Notes: generated by a model from the sequence alone, not told the origin. A stretch of DNA of 63,558 nucleotides, filler included, from Collodictyon triciliatum (GCA_043381765.1; 5 parts of 5 records of this genome joined end to end with filler, not necessarily neighbours in it), one strand, 5' to 3'. Shown: positions 8,359-10,026, counted from the whole stretch's first letter. Numbers and translations: made by a program.

Positions 8359-10026
8359 TTATTCTCGTAGGACAGAGTAATATTCCATGACCTTTTCAGT
8401 GATTTTTTCGATGTTGTTGTGTGGGTGTTCCGTGTCTCTGTCGGTTGGTGGGATTAGTGATACTGCATTCTGCAGTTCATCTATAAATTGGCTGTGTGCT
8501 TCAGGTCCGAGCTTTTGCTTCATATACCTAAACCGTTTTATAATCTATATTTTATATCTTGCTATTCTTGCCTAAATTTCTATACAAATAGGACCGGAAT
8601 CACTTAATGAATGAAATAATTTGTTTGTTTTCTGCGGCCGCCATGTGATGAAAAGGTCAAAGATTGGGTCTTGAAAATCATAAACATTCATTTGATTCAT
8701 ATTGAAACGTATTATTATTTCATACTCGACTACGGAGGCACTGCTGTTGCTCTGTTGAAATATGGCCGCCAAGGCACACATTTGAGGAGGAAACACCAGA
8801 GTGGCATCTGTGATTATCAGTTCGCAGAGGGTATGTGTGCATTCTTCCCAGAACTGAGTCGGATAAGAAATACCTAACTGAAAGACAAACAAACATCACG
8901 GTTAGGACGGCTGTATTGGTGTTTTTTTTTTTTTTTTAATATCTATCTTTAAGCAGATATGATTTTTTGCTGTGGGTTTAGTGGAATAAAATAGGATGAT
9001 AAAATTTTGCATAATTGAAAATGAAGTGTCTTCTAGCTTGTTTTATTGACATCAAAATGGGCTGTATATTATCATTTTTATTTGTGTAAGTACCGCTTCC
9101 ATGTCCATCTTGAATCCGTGTAGCGAGCGGAAAGGTGAGTAAATAAGCAGATTGAAGCTGATTCCCGACATCAGATCTAATTCAGCCTTCAAAATATCAT
9201 TTTTTGGAATTTTAAAATGGTCTGCAATCATCTGCGGGTGGATAGCAGATTCCTCCGTTTTACATGCTAAAACTAGTGCCGCCGGTCTGATTGAATTTGC
9301 ACAATTATTGACGCAGTCAAAGAAGTGGGTGTATGGAGATAGCTTGTTGGTGGATTGTATGTGCATAAGTGGTAATTCAAGGATAGAATAAATAGAGAAT
9401 AAAAAAAAGTATGCTTATCAAAGGTGTCGGGTTAAACAAGGTGGGCAATATACATACATATATTTAAATTCATTTTATAGTAATTACACAAGTACAACTA
9501 ACATACACGATAGCATCTACAGAATATTTCCATATAGACCGGTCCAAGTAAAATCGCTTAACGAAAGATACAGCAGCATACTAAGTCATGCAATCGCAAG
9601 CAGGGTTATTAATATACACATAGACATAGACATAGACATAGACATAGACATAGACATAGACATAGACATAGACATAGACATAGACATAGACATAGACATA
9701 GACATAGACATAGACATGCACATACACATAGACACAGACACAGACATAGATGATAGGACTTCAGCAGATCTTGGTGCGTAAAAAGTGGCTTACAAGGACT
9801 TTGAAAGGGATCTTTTGCAGACGAACATAGGTGAGCAGGACTTTAAGGTGGTGGTCAATAAAGACAGCCTCTTCGGCAGGCTCAAAATCCGGCAGAACTG
9901 CATCTTTTTCCAAGGCGACGTGGCGCATCTCGTCGATTCCTGCCTGGAATGCAACAGCCCATCGCTGGGCGTCTGGTCTCGGCTGATCAGCCACTTTGTG
10001 TGATGGGTGGACTTCAGGTATTCCAT
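8359..10026 (-). CDS. CCNH: Cyclin H (CAK/TFIIH cyclin); exon 1 interrupted by a frame-breaking 35-nt segment
   Basis: MEYLKSTHHTKWLISRDQ / IDEMR...EPAEEAVFIDHHLKVL, YAAVSFVKRFYLDRSIWKY, ALVLACKTEE, AELDLMSGISFNLLIYSPFRSLHGF, TDATLVFPPQMCALAA. Four GT-AG introns downstream; stop TAA 8359-8361. Confidence 0.88.
9617..9750. repeat. (ACATAG)n microsatellite in cyclin H intron
   Basis: Visible tandem hexamer. Confidence 0.95.

Follow-up and report, generated by a model that had tools for sequence, protein, structure and literature searches.

Translational bypassing is found in phage T4 gene 60 and in the mitochondrial byp elements of Magnusiomyces, and in viral frameshifting of the gag-pol type a change from frame 0 to frame minus-1 is needed to obtain the full product from one mRNA. 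In Perkinsus mitochondria an essential gene reportedly carries a C-run at a +2-type frame break. That system is organellar, concerns all genes and is conserved. Multi-base frameshift decoding in the mitochondria of Perkinsus is described in the available text of one article (PMC9550989). Among cyclin H proteins, that of Diphylleia rotans (P0001/P0029) has the start motif, a long N-terminal helix and the cyclin box in common with the gene described below.

Here we describe a cyclin H gene of Collodictyon triciliatum (GCA_043381765.1), located on the minus strand of a stretch of DNA of 63,558 nucleotides, called the window. For a full product from one mRNA this gene would need the same 0-to-minus-1 change as gag-pol, but its site differs from the viral ones in lacking a heptamer, a significant stem or pseudoknot signal downstream, and a stop close by in frame 0. 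As in bypassing, there are matched triplets around short gaps (+5, +8 and +29) and a hairpin with a GNRA loop after the first CAG. However, the take-off triplet is not followed by a stop, chance alone can account for the hairpin, and the gap of 29-35 nt is conserved coding sequence. A gap of the gene 60 or byp type is rejected on this comparison, and only the short +5 and +8 hops appear compatible with it. With the Perkinsus system the locus shares a C-run at a +2-type break in an essential gene, but here a single nuclear site is concerned and it is missing in Diphylleia.

Cyclin H gene and the frame break in its first exon

Exon 3 (9286-9094) matched positions 108-171 of the family TIGR00569 'cyclin ccl1' with an E-value of 5.4e-09 and 35.8 bits, and exon 2 matched positions 81-99 weakly (E 0.046); the cutoff of this family, 250 bits, applies to whole proteins, and exon fragments score far under it. 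Weak matches were also obtained for exon 3 with Pfam Cyclin_N (E 6.9e-04) and for exon 4 with Cyclin_C_2. A HMMER search with exon 3 against 1.84 billion representatives gave 28 matches at E <=0.001. The best of them, P0001, had an E-value of 7e-18 and 59% identity over exon 3, and the next cyclin-H-like matches had 35-46%. P0001 and P0029 are transcript ORFs of Diphylleia rotans (EukProt). Among the 28 matches Diphylleia is represented by one cluster, P0001, with two members, both of them isoforms from one Trinity gene. On these profile and protein matches the gene is assigned to the cyclin H/Ccl1 family. Exons 2-4 are intact according to the TIGR00569 profile and tblastn, and the three other introns that were checked are 60 to 220 nt long and all GT-AG. 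For exon 1, Pfam and NCBIfam gave nothing meaningful in either frame, and a PDB sequence search with its frame-2 part gave no match at E up to 10. The features of the gene are collected in Table 1.

Table 1. Features of the cyclin H gene and the evidence for each, in the order of the minus strand, followed by the variants.
Feature	Position	Strand	Evidence or remark
Acceptor AG in 5' UTR (ttaacAG/ccc)	10056..10057	-	X1 cDNA contig ends matching at 10056
First AUG of cyclin H, frame 1	10024..10026	-	Sequence; inside both cDNA contigs; G at -3, G at +4
N-terminal motif MEYLKSTHHTKWLISRD, frame 1	9976..10026	-	tblastn HSP, Diphylleia residues 1-16, frame -1
Frame-break interval CAGACGCC	9968..9975	-	Gap between two tblastn HSPs; adjoins CCC at 9969-9967
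Flagged 35-nt segment; frame-2 coding from 9967 (QRWAVAFQAG)	9938..9972	-	cDNA retention, tblastn
Rest of exon 1, frame 2	9794..9967	-	60-residue ungapped tblastn HSP, frame -3; exon end by cDNA contigs
First frame-2 AUG, candidate downstream start	9926..9928	-	About residue 33 of the Diphylleia protein, inside predicted helix 15-40
Intron 1, GTAAGC...TTAG, 213 nt	9581..9793	-	Spliced out of cDNA contigs
Exon 2 (..VKRFYLDRS..)	9507..9580	-	TIGR00569 81-99; tblastn
Exon 3, cyclin-box core	9094..9286	-	TIGR00569; Cyclin_N; 59% identity to P0001
Exon 4, 3' end provisional	8749..8877	-	tblastn E 1.9e-09; weak Cyclin_C_2
Variant T>C, window vs X1/X2	9961	-	GAT>GAC in frame 1, TGG>CGG in frame 2; frame-3 ATG lost
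Variant A>T, window vs X1/X2	9979	-	CGA>CGT in frame 1; AGA>TGA stop in frame 2

The ATG at 10026-10024 opens MEYLKSTHHTKWLISRDQ.. in frame 1. From there to the end of exon 1 at 9794, which is followed by a GTAAGC donor at 9793, the coding part of the exon is 233 nt long. This is 2 mod 3, so that the start motif in frame 1 and ..IDEMRHVALEKD.. in frame 2 are out of frame with each other; the part that runs into the cyclin box, ..IDEMRHVALEKDAVLPDFEPAEE..KVL, likewise sits in frame 2. A motif of the S-S/T-Q/H-x-x-x-W type, preceded by aromatic-x-x, is present in frame 1 at 10026-9976. The hallmarks of cyclin H are thus divided, with the motif in frame 1 and the helix residues in frame 2, and no single continuous frame holds both.

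The preliminary description of this locus had reported the same division of exon 1 into two frames, and in this it was right. Its minus-strand letters were as quoted when read from the sequence, with the 35 nt that it had set apart at 9972..9938. It had also stated that the downstream frame has no upstream ATG, and indeed none is present in frame 2 upstream of 9928, the first being the one at 9928. We enumerated all deletions that restore the frame, begin with GT, GC, AT or GA and end with AG or AC. This bore out the further statement that no GT-AG intron repairs the frame without loss of the conserved W, as the sole option with these borders takes out 17 nt and that residue with them. Deletions of 26 and 44 nt with GC-AG borders exist.

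When the Diphylleia protein was compared with the window by tblastn, its residues 1-16 fell on 10026-9976 (frame -1) and its residues 20-79 on 9967-9788 (frame -3), the latter without a gap. Three Diphylleia residues stand opposite the 8 nt between these matches (9975-9968), and hence exactly one base is missing. The best positions for a single shift, judged against P0001, are at CDS index 51-63, with the highest score of 158 at index 56-58, and the break separates the frame-1 codons ..ISRD(Q) from the frame-2 codons QRWAVAF... Given one supplied base, the distance from the W to the end of exon 1 is 67 residues in both Diphylleia and the window gene. The Diphylleia transcript ORF is continuous, whereas the window gene shifts frame after about residue 18. 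Since the Diphylleia ORF is unbroken, the break is derived in this lineage. In the simplest account of its origin, a base would have been lost from the C-run of ACG-CCC-AG or next to it; an imperfect 5-nt tandem duplication, AGACC/AGACG (4/5), is a possible alternative. Past the break, frame 1 continues for about 77 codons and stops in exon 2.

To evaluate the N-terminal motif we used a profile of 10 cyclin H proteins, picked from 17 retrieved because their N-termini carry the motif. The frame-1 peptide added about 12 bits to the match with this profile, from 24.3 bits for a start at the internal Met to 36.3-37.6 bits. Random N-termini of 18 residues never reached the observed global score of 158 against P0001 in 5000 trials (mean 117.6, sd 5.0). 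These comparisons establish the motif as genuine cyclin H sequence.

Retention of the break in mRNA and coding of the 35-nt segment

Two cDNA contigs cover exon 1, one of 951 nt from run X1 and one of 275 nt from run X2. Both runs belong to one study and are labelled as two organisms, and the comparison was restricted to the repeat-free stretch 9745-10145. Both contigs stop matching exactly at 9794 and then continue with the reverse complement of the exon 2 start at 9580, which identifies them as spliced cDNA. The X1 contig spans 9794-10056 and the X2 contig 9794-10041, with no indel and no joint, and the whole 35 nt is kept in each. The dominant mRNA keeps the one-base break uncorrected. As the contigs are consensus sequences that drop rare variants, they show the presence of forms and not their absence. 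Two further runs, X3 (DNA metagenome) and X9 (metatranscriptome), had no contig on 9745-10145.

At positions 9961 and 9979 the X1/X2 contigs differ from the window, and they are therefore not derived from the same assembly but represent an independent haplotype or strain. In all, 3-4 letters differ in about 250 nt between this haplotype and the window. The break is common to the two haplotypes and thus not brand new. In X1/X2 the TGA at 9979-9977 closes frame 2, so that a change of frame or a new start has to lie downstream of 9977. Both substitutions are synonymous in frame 1, an observation of little weight with two sites. Considering only the relatives that were compared, the break is present in the X1/X2 haplotype and absent in Diphylleia. 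A protein homology search with exon 3 for intermediate relatives gave no match among 6 candidates, and in metagenome scans none of the 481 pattern matches for exon 1 and none of the 55 for the exon 3 alignment were confirmed. A (GTCTAT)n microsatellite lies within intron 1 at 9618-9717 and a (GATGT)n microsatellite just upstream of the gene at about 10150-10260; these two may be the reason why freshwater metagenome runs showed small word shares.

An error of assembly or sequencing, with a true sequence one base longer, is largely refuted as the source of the break and in our view extremely improbable. The missing base does adjoin a C-run of short length, and N runs mark the assembly as a gapped draft. 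However, the two cDNA contigs were assembled independently, depart from the window sequence at two sites close by and carry no indel over 9794-10041. The preliminary description had asked that an indel error be excluded, and the comparison with the cDNA contigs has come out in favour of a real break.

The 35-nt segment at the break had been described as an insert whose exact removal restores cyclin H. In frame 2, however, the segment reads QRWAVAFQAGI, which aligns ungapped opposite ERRESAFAKGI of Diphylleia. Each frame-restoring deletion and each single-base re-read was scored globally against P0001. The single -1 shift at CDS index 56-58 gave the score of 158 reported above, followed by deletions of 5 nt (153) and 8 nt (148). 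Lower scores were obtained for the 35-nt deletion (138), a shift at the end of the segment (136), the 29-nt deletion (130), a shift at G AAA AAG (128) and the GC-AG deletions of 26 nt (125) and 44 nt (116). When the 12 residues of the segment were shuffled, a score of at least 158 was reached in 18 of 5000 trials, and with random 12-mers from the window in 10 of 5000. The X1/X2 allele, which changes W to R as in Diphylleia, lifts the score against P0001 to 166. In the AlphaFold model of P0001 (pLDDT 88.5) residues 15-40 form a single long helix (block pLDDT 87-95), of which the segment encodes the first half. A 35-nt deletion would consequently cut 12 residues from the predicted helix.

The profile of distant cyclin H proteins fails to discriminate between the 35-nt deletion (36.3 bits) and the single shift (37.6 bits), and the coding case therefore rests on one close relative, Diphylleia. 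On that alignment the 35 nt is ordinary coding sequence in the downstream frame and not an insert. The wording 'exactly 35 nt' has to be dropped, as the single shift is better against Diphylleia and about equal to the deletion on the distant profile.

The proposed structure-guided excision of the segment is contradicted for the dominant mRNA, in which both spliced contigs keep every base. The double hairpin on which that proposal was built does appear in the minimum-energy fold of 9925-9985, at -18 kcal/mol, but it is not beyond chance, since 25 of 200 dinucleotide shuffles equalled it (z -1.29). Several related candidates were set aside. As a spliceosomal intron the 35 nt would have the borders AC..GA, and it is retained in both contigs. 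For excision of the IRE1 or bulge-helix-bulge type, the 5' junction is loop-like but does not lie in a loop of that kind, and the 3' junction misfits; this verdict is an informal one, made by eye against consensus features. A 9-mer that is the inverse of AACAGCCCA, at 10060-10052, was dropped with an estimated p of about 0.06 given its proximity. Similar hairpin inserts had also been suggested as something to look for elsewhere. In the 63.5-kb window we found no second copy of the 35-mer or its flanks, and the best stray matches were 9-11 nt long with chance E-values.

The X1 contig ends its match at an acceptor in the 5' UTR (Table 1). The 29 nt joined upstream of 10056 in this contig are absent from the 63.5-kb window at <=3 mismatches; their source could be a spliced leader, a chimeric end of the contig, or a 5' exon that is distant or hidden in a gap.

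Translation of the broken message

A CAK/TFIIH subunit that is normally essential thus has, in two haplotypes, a one-base break in its dominant mRNA, and no 35-nt hairpin-guided intron or bypass element is present. Our preferred reading, held tentatively and with rather less than even confidence, is a lineage-specific one-base frameshift in the mRNA, with cyclin H made from the AUG at 9928-9926 and truncated at the N-terminus. Ribosomes that start at AUG 10026 would then mostly yield a short out-of-frame product ending in exon 2, and working cyclin H would come from ribosomes that scan past it to AUG 9928-9926. The product of this downstream start would be without most of the N-terminal region, as the model of P0001 predicts the loss of most of the helix at residues 15-40. 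Several observations count against a downstream start. The strong context of AUG 10026, with G at both -3 and +4, should make leaky scanning to 9928 inefficient. Between these AUGs the window allele also has an ATG that is out of frame (9962-9960). The loss of the helix counts against it too, given the contacts with Tfb3/MAT1 in yeast TFIIK cited below, and so does the presence of the break in two haplotypes. In addition, the N-terminal motif is undecayed and the variants are synonymous in frame 1, as continued translation of frame 1 predicts. If the downstream AUG is used, the gene would be a natural test of cyclin H function without most of its N-terminal helix region.

Some of these observations speak for programmed recoding at GAC-CAG-ACG-CCC-AG, by which a -1 or +2 slip at the C-run, or a +5 or +8 hop, would give full-length cyclin H. 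We consider this unlikely, though to be reckoned with. The broken mRNA is the dominant one in both haplotypes, the gene is otherwise intact and expressed, its first AUG is in a strong context, its N-terminal motif is perfectly preserved and both haplotype differences are synonymous in frame 1. The single shift and the +5 and +8 hops are all near the maximum against Diphylleia (158, 153 and 148), and identical take-off and landing triplets are present: GAC at 9978-76 and 9973-71 (+5), CAG at 9975-73 and 9967-65 (+8), and a further CAG at +29. The N-terminal helices are also unlikely to be dispensable, because HN1 and HN2, the N-terminal helices of the yeast protein Ccl1/cyclin H, make contact with Tfb3/MAT1 in TFIIK, according to the available text of the structural report (PMC8026125).

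The signals expected of such recoding are not there, however. By eye, GAC CAG ACG CCC AGC contains no slippery heptamer of the type X XXY YYZ. The lone heptamer-like site, G AAA AAG at 9910-9904, comes after conserved residues of frame 2, and shifting at this site gives a score of 128. In a pseudoknot-free fold of the 87 nt downstream of the break (9880-9966) no stable structure was detected (z +0.44, 128 of 200 shuffles as stable), so that both tests for a -1 frameshift site, heptamer and stimulatory structure, were negative. After a -1 or +2 move, cognate re-pairing is possible for none of the tRNAs at the break, and only the +5 and +8 hops allow it. Frame 1 has no nearby stop but runs on for about 77 codons, and as the break is missing in Diphylleia nothing shows its conservation as a signal. 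Rfam gave no family in the whole window. To our knowledge signal-less recoding is very rare in nuclear genes.

Of the preliminary proposal of ribosomal bypass or frameshifting, the frameshift survives alone among the options that were listed there, with no canonical signal, and bypassing fails over a 29-35 nt gap that is coding. That an essential nuclear gene is decoded over a one-base break by signal-poor recoding at ACG-CCC-AG, by -1/+2 or by a hop of 5-8 nt, seems to us doubtful. If true, frame breaks may be tolerated more widely in a deep-branching lineage related to Diphylleia, with this gene as the first case to come to light, and any shifting of ribosomes here would add a rare example of nuclear recoding from a supergroup that has been little studied. 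A proxy screen of the window for further breaks, which gave 111 same-strand overlapping ORF pairs among 412 ORFs, was uninformative. In the available text of the literature consulted there is no report on Collodictyon or Diphylleia that concerns spliced leaders, unusual introns or frameshifts in nuclear genes.

It is also improbable, in our estimate, that the gene is an expressed null allele or a young pseudogene, with function supplied by another allele or a paralogue outside the window. One-base indels in short homopolymers are common mutations, and minor variants would be lost from the contigs. On the other hand, both cDNA contigs and the assembly are broken, which makes the broken form the dominant expressed one; nonsense-mediated decay would be expected to lower the mRNA of a null allele, the break is common to two haplotypes, and the single Diphylleia cluster among the 28 HMMER matches, from one Trinity gene, also counts against this explanation. 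Correction of a minority of the RNA, through removal of the 35 nt, a GC-AG intron of 26 or 44 nt, or insertion of one base by editing, is very unlikely. The two short GC-AG introns had been suggested in the preliminary description, and sequences with these borders do exist and restore the frame; they are retained in the cDNA and their scores of 125 and 116 are well under 158. Consensus contigs would hide minor forms, and against distant cyclin H proteins a shift has no real advantage over the 35-nt deletion. However, no joint is present in X1 or X2, and all three deletions score lower against Diphylleia (138, 125 and 116). Such correction would remove significantly conserved residues and take as many as 12 residues from the predicted helix, the hairpins are not beyond chance, and the other introns checked are longer and GT-AG.

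In annotation, gene callers will truncate cyclin H at this locus or invent an intron.

Other genes and repeats in the window

The window is a gapped draft scaffold, with many N runs and with very long homopolymer and purine/pyrimidine microsatellite tracts, for example at 5400-5600, 11745-11790, 26150-26320 and 28060-28500. On the plus strand, an open frame of 638 residues at 3415-5328 has a Sleeping-Beauty-type HTH near its C-terminal part (HTH_SB 34.3 bits, cutoff 43), and may, from this match, be a domesticated or decayed transposase. A gene of the HlyIII/PAQR type lies at 12003-13064 (+) in a stretch of 59% GC; it consists of two same-frame ORFs, and its 60-nt GT-AG intron (12361-12420) holds an in-frame stop. 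A gene of the ribosomal protein L13 family with two exons is found at 13156-14229 (-), matching Pfam Ribosomal_L13 at positions 2-63 and 73-119. Further genes are a folliculin with a long (QS)n/(HN)n repeat at 26498-27847 (-), a TKL-like protein kinase exon at 32486-32923 (-), Kelch-repeat exons at 39335-41508 (-) and a BEACH-domain gene at 58641-58973 (+).
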